A stretch of 10,864 nt of DNA from a virus: UHGV virus genome UHGV-1747598, one strand, 5' to 3'. Of this stretch, positions 1,281-6,115 are shown one piece after another. Under the pieces are notes generated by a model. That model did no database searches. It saw only the letters and a list, made by a program, of their open reading frames with translations, and was not told the origin of the DNA. Within the stretch, counting starts at the first letter, position 1. Each line of letters starts with the position of its first letter. Both the position numbers and the translations under genes were made by a program.

Positions 1281-1775
1281 ATGGCCATGATGATGATCTA
1301 CGGCATGTTTGTTTTTGAGCTGCGTACGTTGCCGCATCAGCAGTTACAGCAAAACAAAAGCTGGCGGCATGTGAAAAATGAACGCGTTAACCGTTCAGCA
1401 AGCTGGCAGTATATCGGGGCAGGCGATGATCGCATCGTTCTTTCTGGTGTGCTTTATCCTGAAATTACAGGTGGCGAAGTGTCGCTTTCGTTGCTGACCA
1501 CGCAGGCATATACAGGACGCCCCTGGCCTCTGATTGATGGTGTCGGGCAGATTTACGGCATGTATGTCCTGACCGGAACGAATACGACCCGCTCCGAGTT
1601 TGATCGCTACGGTAAGGCGAAAAAGATAGAATTTTCACTGACTCTTGAACGCTGTGATGAGGATTTGCGGGAGCGCCTGCAATCCTCATCGTTCAGTGAT
1701 ATGCTGTCCGGCTTCAAAGATAAGGTCACATCATCCCTTAACAGCGCGGCCAGCTCCGTTAAAGGGCTGTTTTGA
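1281..1775 (+). CDS. Phage tail protein U-like (P2 gpU family)
   Basis: 164-aa ORF with ATG at 1281 preceded by GAGGAG. The N-terminal GMFVFE..TLPHQ motif and the GVLYPE.TGG motif match my recollection of the P2 gpU family. Size and position after the tape measure fit. Confidence 0.7.
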   Translation: MAMMMIYGMFVFELRTLPHQQLQQNKSWRHVKNERVNRSASWQYIGAGDDRIVLSGVLYPEITGGEVSLSLLTTQAYTGRPWPLIDGVGQIYGMYVLTGTNTTRSEFDRYGKAKKIEFSLTLERCDEDLRERLQSSSFSDMLSGFKDKVTSSLNSAASSVKGLF

Positions 1776-1782
1776 TTAACGC

Positions 1783-1812
1783 AAAACCGCTAATGGTCAG
1801 ATTAGCGGTTTT
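1783..1812. terminator. Bidirectional intrinsic terminator hairpin between convergent gpU and invertase genes
   Basis: Perfect inverted repeat AAAACCGCTAAT (1783-1794), loop GGTCAG, ATTAGCGGTTTT (1801-1812), followed by a T-rich tract on + and with the A-run giving a U-run on the - transcript. It lies 8 nt after the gpU stop and overlaps the invertase stop codon (1802-1804). Confidence 0.55.
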
Positions 1813-2401
1813 CATTTTCCTGAGTCTGCCTGGTTGTTTCTTCAGCCTGTATATCGCCTACAGGGTGATAACGATAAATCGTCGATATGCCGATGTCGTA
1901 AATGATCGCCAGTTGTTTCCTGTCATGACCGTTTTTAATCAGCCTCGCTATTTGCTCGTGTTGTTCTTTTGTCAACTTCGGGCGACGTCCGCCAATGCGT
2001 CCTTGTGCGCGTGCTGCTGCCAGCCCGGCCAGTGTACGCTCTACAATTAATTCACGTTCCATTTCGGCTAAAGCCCCCATGACGTGAAAAAAGAAACGCC
2101 CCATGGGTGTTGATGTGTCAATGCTGTCCGTCAGACTACGGAAATTAACACCTTTTTCCCGCAATTCCTCAATAAGCGTGATCAGGTGTTTCATACTTCT
2201 GCCCAGTCTGTCCAGCTTCCAGACAACCAGCGTATCTCCTTCTGATAGCGTTCTGAGCAGTTTTTTCAATCCCGGTCTGGCTGATTTCGTTCCGCTGATT
2301 TTATCTTCAAAAATCAGTTCACATCCTGCGCAGTTCAGTGCATTGCGTTGTAAATCCGTGTTCTGGTCATTTGTTGACACACGAATATAGCCAATTTGCA
2401 T
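1802..2401 (-). CDS. Serine DNA invertase, Hin/Gin/Pin/Cin (Din) family
   Basis: The 199-aa product begins MQIGYIRVSTNDQNTDLQRNAL and contains VVWKLDRLGRS, SLTDSIDTS, GRFFFHVMGALAEMERELIVERT and a C-terminal HTH (GISTIYRY), all hallmark motifs I recall from Hin/Gin. The true start is the ATG at 2401-2399, preceded by AGAGGA; the 264-aa ORF in the track is read-through into the upstream crossover-site region. Confidence 0.9.
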   Translation of the reverse strand: MQIGYIRVSTNDQNTDLQRNALNCAGCELIFEDKISGTKSARPGLKKLLRTLSEGDTLVVWKLDRLGRSMKHLITLIEELREKGVNFRSLTDSIDTSTPMGRFFFHVMGALAEMERELIVERTLAGLAAARAQGRIGGRRPKLTKEQHEQIARLIKNGHDRKQLAIIYDIGISTIYRYHPVGDIQAEETTRQTQENENR

Positions 2402-2455
2402 AAAAAACATCCTCTTTGTTTCGTGAAAAATACATAGTTGGTATAGGTAGGGATA

Positions 2456-2481
2456 AAGACGAAAACGTTGGTTTGGGGGAA
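2456..2481 (+). other. Invertase crossover site 1 (hix/gix-like, 12-2-12)
   Basis: AAGACGAAAACG-TT-GGTTTGGGGGAA. It resembles the gix/hix architecture (..AAACC-NN-GGTTT..) as I recall it. It lies about 55 bp upstream of the invertase start, at the 5' boundary of cassette A. Confidence 0.6.
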
Positions 2482-2901
2482 GGCTCTGCGCTGCCCGTTG
2501 GTGTGCCCGTTCCATGGCCCTCAGCCACGCTGCCAACGGGGTGGCTGAAATGTAACGGCGCAGCATTTTCTTCTGAAATGTACCCCAATCTGGCAAAGGC
2601 CTACCCCGCCAATAAATTACCGGATTTACGGGGCGAATTTATTCGTGGCTGGGATGATGGACGTGGTGTGGACAATGGGAGAGCATTATTAAGCAGCCAA
2701 GAGGCTACAAATTTTTCTCAGCGTGCCGGAAATATAGGCGATGGTGCGGGCCACGCAATTAATTTTCATGATGGCATAGTCGGAAATCAGCCAGGATTTT
2801 CACGATTTAATTTCACCAGTAACTCTGTAGGCGATGGTATAAATTATGTTGCTGTCAGGCCGCGAAATATCGCATTTAATTACATCGTAAGGGCAGCATG
2901 A
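2470..2901 (+). CDS. Silent alternative tail-fiber C-terminal cassette A (no start codon of its own)
   Basis: The translation GSALPVGVPVPWPSATLPTGWLKCNGAAFSSEMYPNLAKAYPANKLPDLRGEFIRGWDDGRGVD...RPRNIAFNYIVRAA is near-identical at both ends to the C-terminus of the H tail fiber, with a different central block. It begins at crossover site 1 and ends with TGA at 2899-2901. Confidence 0.7.
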   Translation, partial: GLGEGSALPVGVPVPWPSATLPTGWLKCNGAAFSSEMYPNLAKAYPANKLPDLRGEFIRGWDDGRGVDNGRALLSSQEATNFSQRAGNIGDGAGHAINFHDGIVGNQPGFSRFNFTSNSVGDGINYVAVRPRNIAFNYIVRAA

Positions 2902-2920
2902 AAACGTTGGTTTGGGGAAA
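2895..2920 (+). other. Invertase crossover site 2 (hix/gix-like)
   Basis: AGCATGAAAACG-TT-GGTTTGGGGAAA. The stop codon of cassette A (TGA) is embedded in its left half-site. Same orientation as site 1. Confidence 0.6.
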
Positions 2921-3388
2921 GGCTCGGCGCTGCCCGTTGGTGTACCTGTTCCGTGGCCCTCAGCTACTCCACCAACGGGCTGGCTGAAATGCAACGGCGC
3001 AGCATTTTCTTCTGAAAAGTATCCCAAACTGGCACAGGCTTACCCCGCGAACAAATTACCGGATTTACGCGGTGAATTTATCCGTGGCTGGGATGATGGG
3101 CGAGGAATTGATGCAGCACGCGCTTTATTGAGCATTCAAACCGGGATGTTGGAAAAACACCGCCATATTGTTGTAGCTAACGATAGATATGACACAAAGG
3201 ATGAATGGGAGTTGGCCACGATTTTCAAAAAAACATATACACAAGGCAGGGGGCTTGATGCCACAAATACAGGAGGGAGTTTGATTCCATCACCAACGCT
3301 TCATTCACGAGGAAGTATTGGTAACACAGGTGGTAGTGAAACCCGCCCCCGCAATATTGCATTTAACTATATCGTGAGGGCGTCTTAG
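2909..3388 (+). CDS. Silent alternative tail-fiber C-terminal cassette B
   Basis: It has the same conserved 5' block (GSALPVGVPVPWPSATPPTGWLKCNGAAFSSEKYPKLAQAYPANKLPDLRGEFIRGWDDGRGID) and the same 3' motif (RPRNIAFNYIVRAS), with a distinct central region. Stop TAG at 3386-3388. Confidence 0.7.
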   Translation, partial: GLGKGSALPVGVPVPWPSATPPTGWLKCNGAAFSSEKYPKLAQAYPANKLPDLRGEFIRGWDDGRGIDAARALLSIQTGMLEKHRHIVVANDRYDTKDEWELATIFKKTYTQGRGLDATNTGGSLIPSPTLHSRGSIGNTGGSETRPRNIAFNYIVRAS

Positions 3389-3394
3389 TTATAT

Positions 3395-4006
3395 TCAACT
3401 GGCTGCTGCCAGTGGTATTTCCGGCCAGTTGATATCTGGTGCCATGTTTATATCCATTGCGTTCAGTGCGTCTATATAATCCAGCACGGCGTTAAGCCGG
3501 GTGGTTTCTGCCTGCGTCAACTTCCGCCCGGCCTGCAACTTCAACTGAATCAGACTTACGGAAGCCATTGCCGCATCAGCCAGTGACTGGCGCTTGGTTT
3601 CTGCCGCTTCTACTGCGGCACCATGTTGTGCCTCAGTATCTGTCACCCATTTTTCACCATCCCATTTATCGTATGGTGTTAACGGGGCGATAGTGGTTGT
3701 ATTTTTCGGGTAGTCACCCAGCGTCGTGATTTCTTCGGTGTTTCCCGTGTCAGTGTTATAGACGGTTTCACCACGATGGTCTGGCGCATACTCCCATGAA
3801 CTTAAATTCTCCGAACGGCGGATAGCATAGCCCGCTTTATGTGCGCCCGGGGCATCTAAACAGGAATTTGCCGGAATACCGACACCCACAGCAAGATATT
3901 CAGTTGATTCGGAAATATATTCCCGTGTTTCACCATCATAGTTATAAACGACGATGTTTCCTGCCTGTACGGCAATAAGGTCATCATTTAATATCGCGTT
4001 ATTCAT
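3395..4006 (-). CDS. Tail fiber assembly protein (Tfa chaperone)
   Basis: The 203-aa product (MNNAILNDDL...VYNYDGETREYIS...YAPDHRGETVYNTDTG...PYDKWDGEKWVTDTEAQH...) looks like the Tfa proteins encoded next to tail fiber genes in lambdoid, Mu and P2-like phages. Its ATG overlaps the stop of cassette C as TAATG. Confidence 0.8.
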   Translation of the reverse strand: MNNAILNDDLIAVQAGNIVVYNYDGETREYISESTEYLAVGVGIPANSCLDAPGAHKAGYAIRRSENLSSWEYAPDHRGETVYNTDTGNTEEITTLGDYPKNTTTIAPLTPYDKWDGEKWVTDTEAQHGAAVEAAETKRQSLADAAMASVSLIQLKLQAGRKLTQAETTRLNAVLDYIDALNAMDINMAPDINWPEIPLAAAS

Positions 4007-4467
4007 TATGCGGTTCTCACAATATAATTGAAGGCAATATTGCGTGGGCGGCTTTCATTCCCATCTGAGGATTCCGTTCTGTATTGACTGGTAAATCTAC
4101 CGTTAATTGCACCTTGCCAGACGGCGTTATCTGTCGACAACAGACTATCCCCTCCTTTGTCATTTGGCACCAGTACCGTGTTATCCCACGCGTCCCATGA
4201 CCGAATATTATGATAATGACTTCCTGTTAACCACCCCTGCATGCTTAAGATGCCCCTTCTGGCATCCACCCCGCGCCCATCATCCCAGCCACGGATAAAT
4301 TCACCGCGTAAATCCGGTAATTTATTGGTGGGGTAGGCTTTTGCCAGTTTGGGGTACATTTCAGAAGAAAATGCTGCACCGTTACATTTCAGCCAGCCCG
4401 TTGGTGGTGTTGCTGAGGGCCACGGAACGGGCACACCAACGGGCAGTGCAGAACCTTCTCCTAAACC
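4006..4467 (-). CDS. Silent alternative tail-fiber C-terminal cassette C, translationally coupled to tfa
   Basis: Translation NVGLGEGSALPVGVPVPWPSATPPTGWLKCNGAAFSSEMYPKLAKAYPTNKLPDLRGEFIRGWDDGRGVD...RPRNIAFNYIVRTA. It follows the stop of the active cassette and crossover site 3, and has no independent start. Confidence 0.7.
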   Translation of the reverse strand, partial: GLGEGSALPVGVPVPWPSATPPTGWLKCNGAAFSSEMYPKLAKAYPTNKLPDLRGEFIRGWDDGRGVDARRGILSMQGWLTGSHYHNIRSWDAWDNTVLVPNDKGGDSLLSTDNAVWQGAINGRFTSQYRTESSDGNESRPRNIAFNYIVRTA

Positions 4468-4481
4468 AACGTTTTCATGCT
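4456..4481 (-). other. Invertase crossover site 3 (hix/gix-like)
   Basis: On the - strand this reads AGCATGAAAACG-TT-GGTTTAGGAGAA. The stop codon of the active H gene (TGA, 4477-4475) is embedded in its left half. It is inverted relative to sites 1 and 2. Confidence 0.6.
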
Positions 4482-6115
4482 GCCCTTACGATGTAATTAA
4501 ATGCAACGTTGCGAGGGCGAGTTTCTGTACCTACATTTCCACTAATTTTACCAAACCGTTTTACATTACGAGAGCTAATGGCTCGTAGTGAGGAAGGCAC
4601 CTTTAAACCGGGTTCGTCTGTTTTAACTATTCCCCCGTCCCCGTATGTAGCCAGTATTCCAGGGTTTACTCCTTCCCGTGTACTTCCCGCGGCAAGTCCA
4701 TCCCCGGTCCATAATTCCATATAGTGTGCATGATCCAAAATTGTGTGTGGCTGCCAATTAAGCAAAGCGCGGCCAGCATCCACCCCGCGCCCATCATCCC
4801 AGCCGCGAATAAATTCTCCCCGTAAATCCGGTAATTTATTGGCGGGGTAGGCCTTTGCCAGATTGGGGTACATTTCAGAAGAAAATGCTGCTCCGTTACA
4901 TTTCAGCCAGCCCGTTGGTGGTGTGGCTGAGGGCCATGGAACAGGCACACCAACGGGCAGTGCAGAGCCTCCCCCCAAACCAAGGTAATCAAGAACTCCC
5001 TGAGTGCTGGTTTTACCAAGAATGGCACGTCCAACACTTGTCAACGCGGTTAACGCGGCACGATCTGCCCCTGTAAAATATGGGAGTTTATCTGCTGATG
5101 TAGCAAGCTCCGCCAGCGCCGTCAGGGTGGCATCCTTCGGTTGCTTACCCGCAAGCGCGTTAGTCATGGTGGTCGCAAAATTCGGGTCATTGCCCAGCGC
5201 CGCAGCCAGTTCGTTCAGCGTGTTCAGTGCATCAGGTGACGAATCTACAAGTGCGGCAATCGCGGCCATAACGAAAGCCGTGCTTGCGATCTGGGTACTA
5301 TTAGCCCCCTGTGGCGCTGTTGGTGTTGTTGGCGTTCCGGTCAGTGCCGGGCTGTTTAATGGTGCTTTCTTGTTCGTTTCATCCATTACCGCCTTAACAG
5401 CTTTTGGTGTCGCTGCCAGCGTTTCAGACGTGCTGTTCGTGGCGCTACTGAGCTGAACAATCCCTTTTTGTGTAGTGGTGGCGTTCCGGGCGGTATATTT
5501 CCCGTTAGCCAGGTCATATGCAGCCTTAACCGCTTTCGGTGTTGCGGCCAGTGTTTCTGATTCACTGTTAATTGCACTGCTTAACTGAGTAAAACCTTTT
5601 ACGGTCAGCGAGGCGTCCGGGTGACGTCGTGATTGTTCGTGCTCTGATATTTTATCATCCACATATTTGCGGGTTGCCAGAACCACAGACGGGTCGATTT
5701 TCAGCGTGATGGCTTCGGTGTTCGTGACAACCAGAATCATGCGGATAGTCTGGGTGCGTCCACTGCCTTCCTGCAACTGCGGTTTGTACGTTTCCGGGCA
5801 GTTTGCCACCGCAATGAGTACACCTTCATCATCATAAAGACCAATCTCACGGATCCAGAATCCTCCCTCGTTTTCAGGGATGATTTGCTCCGCAATAATC
5901 TGGCTCTGATTGTTAGGGTCAACACTCAGAAGATTCAGCGGTGCAATGCGTTTCTGGTTAATCAGTTTTGTTTGTGCAGGGTCTGGTGTTGGTAACACAC
6001 CATTTGCATCACCAACGGCCATTTGCGTCAGATTCAGCTTACTGCCGAGCATCGTCGCGTTAGCCAGTCGTGCCGCGCCCTGATTAGTCAGAATGGCGTA
6101 GTATTTCACTGTCAT
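4475..6115 (-). CDS. Tail fiber protein H (P2 gpH-like constant N-terminal region fused to the currently active C-terminal cassette D, about 4475-4982)
   Basis: The 546-aa product starts MTVKYYAILTNQGAARLANA...MAVGDANG and contains EHEQSRRHPDASLTVKGFTQLSSA and the twice-repeated SETLAATPKAVKA motif, which match my memory of P2 gpH. The C-terminal 166 aa carry the shared cassette blocks. Its ATG overlaps the gpI stop as ATGA. Confidence 0.85.
   Translation of the reverse strand: MTVKYYAILTNQGAARLANATMLGSKLNLTQMAVGDANGVLPTPDPAQTKLINQKRIAPLNLLSVDPNNQSQIIAEQIIPENEGGFWIREIGLYDDEGVLIAVANCPETYKPQLQEGSGRTQTIRMILVVTNTEAITLKIDPSVVLATRKYVDDKISEHEQSRRHPDASLTVKGFTQLSSAINSESETLAATPKAVKAAYDLANGKYTARNATTTQKGIVQLSSATNSTSETLAATPKAVKAVMDETNKKAPLNSPALTGTPTTPTAPQGANSTQIASTAFVMAAIAALVDSSPDALNTLNELAAALGNDPNFATTMTNALAGKQPKDATLTALAELATSADKLPYFTGADRAALTALTSVGRAILGKTSTQGVLDYLGLGGGSALPVGVPVPWPSATPPTGWLKCNGAAFSSEMYPNLAKAYPANKLPDLRGEFIRGWDDGRGVDAGRALLNWQPHTILDHAHYMELWTGDGLAAGSTREGVNPGILATYGDGGIVKTDEPGLKVPSSLRAISSRNVKRFGKISGNVGTETRPRNVAFNYIVRAA
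4970..4995 (-). other. Invertase crossover site 4 (hix/gix-like), inside the tail fiber gene at the constant/variable junction
   Basis: On the - strand this reads TTCTTGATTACC-TT-GGTTTGGGGGGA, encoding ...LDYLGLGG.... The central TT occupies the same codon positions as in cassette sites 1-3. Confidence 0.6.

Follow-up and report, generated by a model that had tools for sequence, protein, structure and literature searches.

The window analysed here, a 10,864-nucleotide stretch of the viral genome UHGV-1747598, carries on its minus strand a gene for a serine DNA invertase of the Din family (positions 1802-2401; 199 aa; Pfam Resolvase, E = 1.5e-51, and HTH_7, E = 1.4e-12). The open reading frame is intact and starts with an ATG at 2401-2399 on the minus strand, and its putative Shine-Dalgarno element, read from the sequence as GAGGA (2410-2414, minus strand; -13 to -9, 8 nt before the ATG), is kept in an alignment of the subfamily. 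The order on the minus strand is invertase, tail-fibre cassettes, tail-fibre gene H, and then I, J, W and V; the plus strand carries the tape measure and gpU genes. The window represents a P88-like prophage of E. coli (Xuanwuvirus, a P2-related peduovirus). E. coli chromosomes match it at up to 100% identity, and a relative of positions 1780-2520 is present in 933 of 5,426 complete E. coli genomes. One such record, EC43, matches a 741-base query at 100%, and the cassette beside its site 1 is annotated as frameshifted. A large rearrangement was suspected from the manner in which the FI-U block faces the V-H block, and was rejected; phage P88 itself has the same order, and the opposed arrangement is therefore normal for the genus.

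The invertase protein and its Fis-contact residues

The encoded protein is colinear and gapless over residues 1-185 with the Gin structures 4m6f and 3uj3 (E = 3e-91), and is 72% identical to Gin of Mu and 74% identical to Cin of P1. Its Ser9 aligns with the catalytic Ser9 of Gin (Ala in PDB 3uj3), and it combines a Resolvase-type catalytic domain, complete with this active-site serine, and a C-terminal helix-turn-helix, domains that characterise invertases of its type, which are about 190 aa long. Residues through which Hin communicates with Fis and with enhancer DNA have been defined: Gln151, Arg154 and Leu155, in helix 1 of the DNA-binding domain, contact Fis, and the basic residues 47 (Lys47), 48 and 51 of helix B face the enhancer DNA, both sets being conserved in invertases and not in resolvases (McLean et al. 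2013, PMC3798978). With an offset of one residue, Q151, R154 and L155 of Hin correspond to Q150, R153 and L154 of the present invertase (within EQIARLI), and K47, R48 and K51 of Hin correspond to its K46, K47 and R50 (within RPGLKKLLR). Gin likewise has Q150, R153 and L154, and gamma-delta resolvase has a gap or other residues at these positions. Judged by this alignment, the invertase retains the Fis-contact and enhancer-contact residues defined in Hin. Positions H106 and M114 are also wild type; the latter is Val in PDB 3uj3, and M114V is a Fis-independent mutation of Gin. Independence from Fis is conferred in Hin by H107Y (PMC3798978).

Crossover sites and inversion isomers

A repeat of about 230 bp is present in four copies, two direct and two inverted, and a 26-bp crossover site of the Din type lies at the outer edge of each. 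Sites of this type pair two imperfect inverted half-sites of 12 bp about a 2-bp core, and recombining partners have the core in common. Site 1, the outermost and the one proximal to the invertase, was located by its sequence at 2456-2481 (plus strand; AAGACGAAAACG TT GGTTTGGGGGAA), and site 2, in the same manner, at 2895-2920 (plus strand; AGCATGAAAACG TT GGTTTGGGGAAA). Site 3 was likewise placed at 4456-4481, in inverted orientation (minus strand), and site 4, at 4970-4995 (minus strand), falls where the constant and variable portions of the expressed tail-fibre gene (4475-6115) meet. All four have an AAAC(C/G)-TT-GGTTT core with an identical central TT, and agree with the consensus for Din crossover sites of Sandmeier 1994, as quoted in PMC4134206. 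The central TT of site 1 (2468-2469) lies 67 nt from the A of the invertase ATG, in good accord with the roughly 65 bp given in an earlier note on this DNA, and the distance in Mu is the same 67 nt (G-segment boundary at 35025, gin start at 35092).

Site 1 is almost identical to the Phi2_3prime site of strain EC958 (GAGAGATAAACGTTGGTTTGGGGGAA), the boundary of a segment that PacBio assemblies show in either orientation (PMC4134206, Table 3). Alternative arrangements of the region itself occur in other genomes. In E. coli CB9615 (locus L164 of our set) the sequence corresponding to 2872-4504 of the window is inverted, which is the isomer of site 2 with site 3; in a viral contig (L085) that matches the 5' end of the window's invertase gene exactly, the sequence past site 1 continues as window 4983 to 3650, inverted, the arrangement expected of an exchange between site 1 and site 4. 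In the comparison of this contig with the window the exchange is not pinned to the TT, and its exact point at site 1 is unlocatable because the flanking repeats of about 230 bp are mosaic and the strains have diverged. Matches of E. coli chromosomes in two pieces were considered as further site-1 isomers and set aside: in L164, the one fetched, the position of site 2 also gives a match to the query's end. Many assemblies are interrupted right at the crossover core. The common central TT, the isomers in other genomes and the near-identical EC958 site identify these, at the level of sequence, as real crossover sites.

The leader between site 1 and the invertase

No promoter was found on either strand by a strict sigma-70 scan of positions 1700-3000. 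A relaxed scan gave weak candidates on the minus strand, namely a -10 element at 2427-2434 (TGTATT at 2429-2434 or TATTTT at 2427-2432) and a -35 element, TTTATC (3/6), at 2452-2457, which shares 2 nt with the end of site 1. The best pairings are TTTATC-17-TGTATT and TTATCC-18-TATTTT, with 7 of 12 matches each (3/6 plus 4/6). Upstream regions from the 16 closest members of the subfamily all contain TGTATTTTT without variation, and the candidate -35 is not conserved in the subfamily, where TTAACT and TTAATC variants occur. An extended -10-like motif, TGGCAT(G/C)AT, occurs in Mu and many homologues as far from the ATG as the candidate -10 of the window.

These candidates bear on the proposal that the invertase controls its own synthesis. 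Elements at -33 to -26 put the -35 region at about -56 to -50, and the 26-mer ends at -55; occlusion of the promoter by bound invertase is geometrically plausible, in the window as in Mu and the homologues with the extended motif, because a -35 region would abut or overlap the inner arm of the crossover site. Repression of the gene by invertase bound at site 1 is thus plausible on purely geometric grounds. Autoregulation through an adjacent site has been proposed in the Hin/Gin literature, and a search of a limited set of papers for autoregulation of Gin, Hin and Cin returned nothing usable. The earlier note had invoked Cin alongside Gin as a precedent; this half of the analogy does not carry over, as cixL overlaps the 3' end of cin and the layout of the window is that of Gin and Hin.

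A candidate two-site enhancer in the 5' coding sequence

In the P1 record AF234173, nt 19-90 of cin are annotated as the enhancer of Cin-mediated C-segment inversion. By homology to this element, a recombinational enhancer (sis) is predicted at 2312-2383 of the window (minus strand; gene nt 19-90, codons 7-30). The stretch aligns gapless and in register with the P1 cin enhancer, with Mu gin and with Salmonella hin, the reference for the last being a metagenome contig on which hixL (TTCTTGAAAACCAAGGTTTTTGATAA) and hin are followed by the fljB flagellin gene. Nucleotide identity to these three is 74-79% in the enhancer and drops to 63-65% elsewhere in the gene.

Two Fis cores are predicted within it on the minus strand. 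Core I, the proximal one, is TGTCAACAAATGACC (2365-2379, gene nt 23-37) and fits KNNYRNNWNNYRNNM; core II, the distal one, is GCGCAGGATGTGAAC (2317-2331, gene nt 71-85) and fits GNNYRNNWNNYRNNC as well as KNNYRNNWNNYRNNM. Both also fit the classical Fis core (G/T)NNYRNNWNNYRNN(C/A), and both have the Y-R steps at +/-(3-4) described for Fis sites (PMC4784862). A distance of 48 bp separates their centres, which lie at gene nt 30 (window 2372) and 78 (window 2324); the aligned Hin, Gin and Cin genes have the identical spacing. Johnson, Glasgow and Simon (1987, cited in PMC3798978) are said to have found that a fixed 48-bp spacing of the enhancer Fis sites, which puts them on the same face of the helix, is required. 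Together the two cores span 63 bp, and the centre of core I lies 96.5 bp from that of site 1; the Hin enhancer is 65 bp long, with a Fis site on each end, and lies about 100 bp from hix (PMC3798978).

Core I of the window is identical at 14 of 15 positions to its counterpart in hin (TGTCAACAATTGACC); the counterparts of core II are GTGCAAATTGTGACC in hin, GTGCAGGATGTGAAC in gin and GCGCAGGATGTGAGC in cin. The window, Hin, Gin, Cin and an invertase from a Yersinia phage all match the consensus at both cores, with no shift of register. Between them, alignment to Hin picks out the A/T-rich segments ATTTA (nt 47-51) and CAATG (nt 57-61) at 2341-2355 (minus strand), at positions where Hin's helix-B region lies over ATTTA and TAATG, within the stretch separating the two Fis sites (McLean et al. 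2013, PMC3798978). In core I, position -7 is T, not G, and position -8 is G, features reported as unfavourable (PMC4784862), and the centre of core II is G/C-rich (GGATG). The bases at -7 and -8 of core I and the centre of core II are common to functional Hin, Gin or Cin sites.

The earlier note had quoted a string, GTGTCAACAAATGACCAGAACACGGATTTACAACGCAATGC, as resembling the Hin enhancer. This string is indeed present on the coding strand, at 2340-2380 (gene nt 22-62), where it encodes VSTNDQNTDLQRNA, and the resemblance is borne out by the near-identity of core I with hin. What it takes in is core I and the spacer; core II, at 2317-2331, fell within the range that had been considered and was not pointed out.

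Selection on the DNA of the predicted Fis cores

Motif counts were rejected as stand-alone evidence for Fis sites, both the single and the paired consensus occurring at chance level: the window holds 28 matches to GNNYRNNWNNYRNNC against 25.1 expected, and one match to the paired pattern with a 33-nt spacer against 0.71 expected. The sole paired match, at 2317-2379, coincides precisely with the homologue of the enhancer annotated in P1. The consensus is so degenerate that chance matches are to be expected, and the case for something other than chance rests on homology and on suppressed synonymous variation.

Synonymous variation was assessed in 91 genes, no more than 95% identical to one another, to which a collection of 160 invertase loci had been reduced; for each of 180 codons we took the fraction of sequence pairs with the same amino acid that use different codons. 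The patterns with which the homologues were collected derive from peptides and take in codons 11-18 and 25-32, and the set is to that extent not fully independent. Bias of retrieval nevertheless does not seem to be the cause of what follows: neighbouring codons in the same patterns vary normally, and the Hin and Yersinia phage loci, found by other routes, carry the same cores.

Gene-wide, the median fraction is about 0.60. The lowest four-codon window of the gene is codons 9-12 (0.033), and the next lowest non-overlapping one is codons 24-27 (0.157). Within core I the values are 0.00 for Ser9, 0.02 for Thr10, 0.08 for Asn11 and 0.02 for Asp12; Ser9 is TCA in 91 of 91 genes, though serine has six codons, and Thr10 is ACA. 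Within core II they are 0.06 for Ala25, 0.075 for Gly26 and 0.16 for Cys27, with only GCA or GCG used for Ala25 and only GGA or GGT for Gly26 across the 91 genes. The third positions that remain free vary only inside the consensus classes R, W and Y: in core I, nt 27 is A in 91 of 91 and nt 30 is A in 90 and T in one (W); in core II, nt 75 is A in 85 and G in six (R), and nt 78 is A in 79 and T in 12 (W). Codons 13-24, between the cores, vary normally (0.33-0.78), and nearby residues that are equally conserved vary freely in their codons (R7, 0.72; T15, 0.74; L17, 0.78; L22, 0.72). Synonymous variation thus collapses at the two cores, and selection therefore acts on the DNA at exactly both predicted Fis cores, as purifying selection beyond that on the encoded protein. 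Recent gene conversion of the 5' end was considered and rejected, as it would homogenise codons 13-24 as well, and those vary.

These observations, together with the homology in register, lend support to the earlier suggestion of a candidate Fis enhancer in the 5' coding sequence, and we consider it highly likely that 2312-2383 is a two-site Fis recombinational enhancer of the Hin/Gin/Cin type. Other accounts of the conserved DNA were weighed against this one. It is extremely improbable that the conservation in 2312-2383 is a mere by-product of a conserved protein N-terminus around the catalytic Ser9, in the absence of any cis element. Amino acids 7-22 are, to be sure, highly conserved, and a conserved peptide necessarily fixes first and second codon positions; yet the synonymous sites are frozen in two discrete blocks (Ser9 and Thr10; Ala25 and Gly26), the equally conserved neighbours R7, T15, L17 and L22 use many codons, and distant recombinases, from Ralstonia and Aeromonas phages, encode the same RVST motif with TCG ACG or AGT ACC and fail the consensus. 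Constraint could also reside in the mRNA, as an initiation structure or codon ramp, or in an internal or antisense promoter, and constraint near the 5' end of coding regions is common, codons 1-6 of the present genes being likewise low in synonymous variation (0.40). We nonetheless give such a feature very little chance of accounting for the frozen sites, in that the predicted RNA fold of -30 to +101 is no stabler than that of shuffled sequences (z = -0.01), Rfam has no match in the window, and the strict scan described above found no promoter-like site on either strand; moreover, the constraint is bipartite, has a 48-bp period and tracks the R, W and Y classes of the Fis consensus, none of which a ramp predicts.

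A different question is whether the enhancer might be an inherited relic, attached to an invertase that is Fis-independent or to a prophage switch that is now inactive. Prophages decay, and the frameshift annotated in the EC43 cassette next to site 1 would be in keeping with such decay. Against it stand the intact reading frame, the wild-type H106 and M114 at positions where mutation gives Fis independence, the retained Fis-contact residues, the isomers of the region among closely related genomes and the many assemblies that break exactly at the crossover core, and we regard the relic account as improbable.

Spacing between crossover site and enhancer across the family

The placement of the enhancer relative to the adjacent crossover site was compared across 126 unique loci where a crossover core could be recognised upstream, as the distance from that core to the aligned start position. 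The distances fall at 63 (n = 1), 66-68 (n = 95), 76-79 (n = 24), 88-89 (n = 5) and 129 nt (n = 1), with none between; Hin belongs to the 77 class, and Mu and the window lie at 67. Ten groups with unrelated spacers of less than 100 nt have distances of 67, 67, 68, 77, 78 (four groups), 88 and 89, which give a resultant length of 0.96 at a period of 10.5 bp, a value reached by none of 20,000 uniform draws, although the corresponding P-value is optimistic because the lineages are not independent. Expressed as distances to Fis core I, the classes are about 96, 107 and 118 bp, or some 10.5-11 bp apart. In Hin, the loop between crossover site and enhancer limits recombination to a single subunit rotation (PMC3798978). 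We tentatively read the quantised distances as a sign, in natural variation, of selection for helical phasing of a short invertasome loop in vivo.

It is also possible, if somewhat doubtful, that the conserved 67 nt between site 1 and the ATG serve self-repression of the promoter rather than the geometry of the enhancer loop. The -35 region belonging to a -10 at -33 to -26 would abut or overlap the 26-mer, Mu and many homologues have the TGGCAT(G/C)AT motif at an equal distance, and adjacent-site control has, as noted, been proposed for Hin and Gin. The promoter candidates of the window are weak, on the other hand, with a -35 that is not conserved, and a promoter constraint predicts one distance, as opposed to three classes 10-11 bp apart. 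Promoter repression and loop geometry are not mutually exclusive.

Discussion

Our analysis indicates that the region at 2250-2481 is very probably the cis-control region of a serine invertase of the Din family (Hin/Gin/Cin/Pin type). Its parts, in all likelihood, are the outermost crossover site, a leader of 67 nt that holds a ribosome-binding site and a promoter that is weak at best, and an enhancer of 63-72 bp. The system is a further switch of the Hin/Gin/Cin/Min type, previously uncharacterised and not novel in kind. The arrangement is that of Mu gin, except that, as in multi-cassette systems, there are four crossover sites to be served, and no result on this prophage challenges the Hin/Gin model.

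The resemblance to Gin, gix and sis of Mu is especially close. The enhancer occupies the same codons, with cores I and II each differing by one base (gin core II being GTGCAGGATGTGAAC); the crossover site precedes the start by the same 67 nt, and the 96.5 bp between site 1 and core I equal the distance in Mu gin; and in both cases the C-terminal part of a tail-fibre gene is switched. Mu differs in having two gix sites and one invertible segment, as compared with four sites and several cassettes here, and in a leader and promoter that are unrelated (TGGCATGAT in Mu versus TGTATTTTT here); the host phage, too, is here a P88-like peduovirus. With Hin and hix of Salmonella the system shares Fis cores in register and 48 bp apart, the ATTTA between them, a crossover site upstream of the gene, and the conserved Fis-contact and basic helix-B residues. 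However, the centre of hixL lies 77 aligned nt from the start, compared with 67 here, making the Hin loop about one helical turn longer, and hin is located inside the segment that it inverts, flipping a promoter with no exchange of gene ends. Cin and cix of P1 offer an enhancer in the same codons (cin nt 19-90) and a protein 74% identical, but cixL overlaps the 3' end of cin rather than the promoter region. In Min of plasmid p15B, as here, a single invertase and one enhancer serve several crossover sites and tail-fibre cassettes. Prophage Phi2 of EC958 has nearly the same crossover site, likewise lying within a repeat (about 227 bp); its description, by contrast, covers two sites and leaves the enhancer and Fis undiscussed (PMC4134206).

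By analogy with these systems, Fis would be expected to bind the enhancer and the invertase to depend on it. In the Hin/Gin paradigm, two Fis dimers would bind and bend the enhancer, where, on supercoiled DNA, invertase dimers would be gathered from site 1 or 2 and from site 3 or 4 as the inverted partner. The beta-arms of Fis would touch the DNA-binding domain of the invertase, converting the dimers into an active tetramer, and the basic patch of helix B, lying on the A/T-rich spacer of the enhancer, may contribute to this activation. A single 180-degree rotation of subunits would then swap the C-terminal cassette of the tail-fibre gene. In addition, invertase bound at site 1 may repress transcription of its own gene.

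From the perspective of genome annotation, close relatives of this locus are carried by about 930 of 5,426 E. coli genomes and are labelled only 'recombinase family protein'. The features described here suggest that, in such prophages, the Fis enhancer and the crossover sites can be mapped with single-base precision, and the footprint that the enhancer leaves at synonymous sites could serve for automatic recognition of Fis-dependent invertases. The phasing classes provide a small comparative confirmation of constraints on loop geometry. If the phasing interpretation is true, the enhancer-proximal, phased site 1 and the distant site 2 would be used at different rates, and such unequal use would bias which tail-fibre cassette is displayed.

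The invertible region and its natural isomers

The invertible region of the window (2456-4995) comprises four crossover sites (site 1, 2456-2481; site 2, 2895-2920; site 3, 4456-4481; site 4, 4970-4995) and four tail-collar cassettes, located at 2416-2901, 2912-3388, 4006-4434 and, for the fourth, at the expressed end of the tail-fibre gene H, together with a single copy of the tail-fibre assembly gene (3395-4006). Cassette number differs among strains, since the EC43 database record, a 100% match to a 741-base query (window 1780-2520), contains six cassette-like genes; in that record the cassette adjoining site 1 is annotated as frameshifted.

Natural isomers of this region exist. In E. coli O55:H7 CB9615 (L164, 7093-8725) the segment corresponding to window 2872-4504 is inverted, the arrangement expected from recombination of site 2 with site 3. 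At one locus gathered for comparison (L085), site 1 is joined to window 4983->3650, the product expected from site 1 and site 4, and at another (L086) it runs directly into the site-2 cassette, the first cassette being absent. In addition, many draft-genome and viral contigs (upstream ends of L015, L157, L023, L032, L039, L046, L054 and L058) terminate precisely at AAACCAACGTTT, the crossover core, which precedes the invertase gene by about 67-78 nt; such assembly breaks at the invertible boundary are consistent with mixed orientations or flanking repeats.

Gene order and a likely terminator

The tail genes FI-FII-E-T-U are transcribed toward the V-W-J-I-H block, with the invertase gene and cassettes lying in between (L003; L165, phage P88), an arrangement unlike the tail gene order of P2. 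Rearrangement was considered as the cause of these facing blocks and rejected, as the phage P88 order is the normal one for P88-like phages. The gpU and invertase genes converge, with stop codons at 1775 and 1802 respectively; between them lies a hairpin with a 12-bp stem and a following T run (1783-1812; AAAACCGCTAATGG..CATTAGCGGTTTT), and this element is likely a bidirectional terminator.

Invertase homologues

Upstream of the invertase genes (loci L004-L163 and L167), the crossover centre lies 66-68, 76-79 or 88-89 nt from the start position, and these discrete classes are spaced by approximately one helical turn; Mu shares the 66-68 nt class of the window, whereas Salmonella hin belongs to the 76-79 nt class. 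Invertases 71-86% identical to that of the window also occur on short contigs assigned to non-enterobacterial genomes (L005, Moraxella osloensis; L044, a Chitinophaga MAG; L066, a Mobilitalea MAG). These three carry crossover sites of enterobacterial type, and are probably contaminating or mis-binned. The lambdoid phage mEp237 encodes an invertase of 51% identity (L170, 300-410) in which part of core I, one of the two predicted Fis-binding cores of the recombinational enhancer, is kept (TATCAACAAACCACC), and neither core fits the Fis consensus. Judged from sequence, enhancer conservation within the invertase family ends somewhere from 58% to 51% protein identity.
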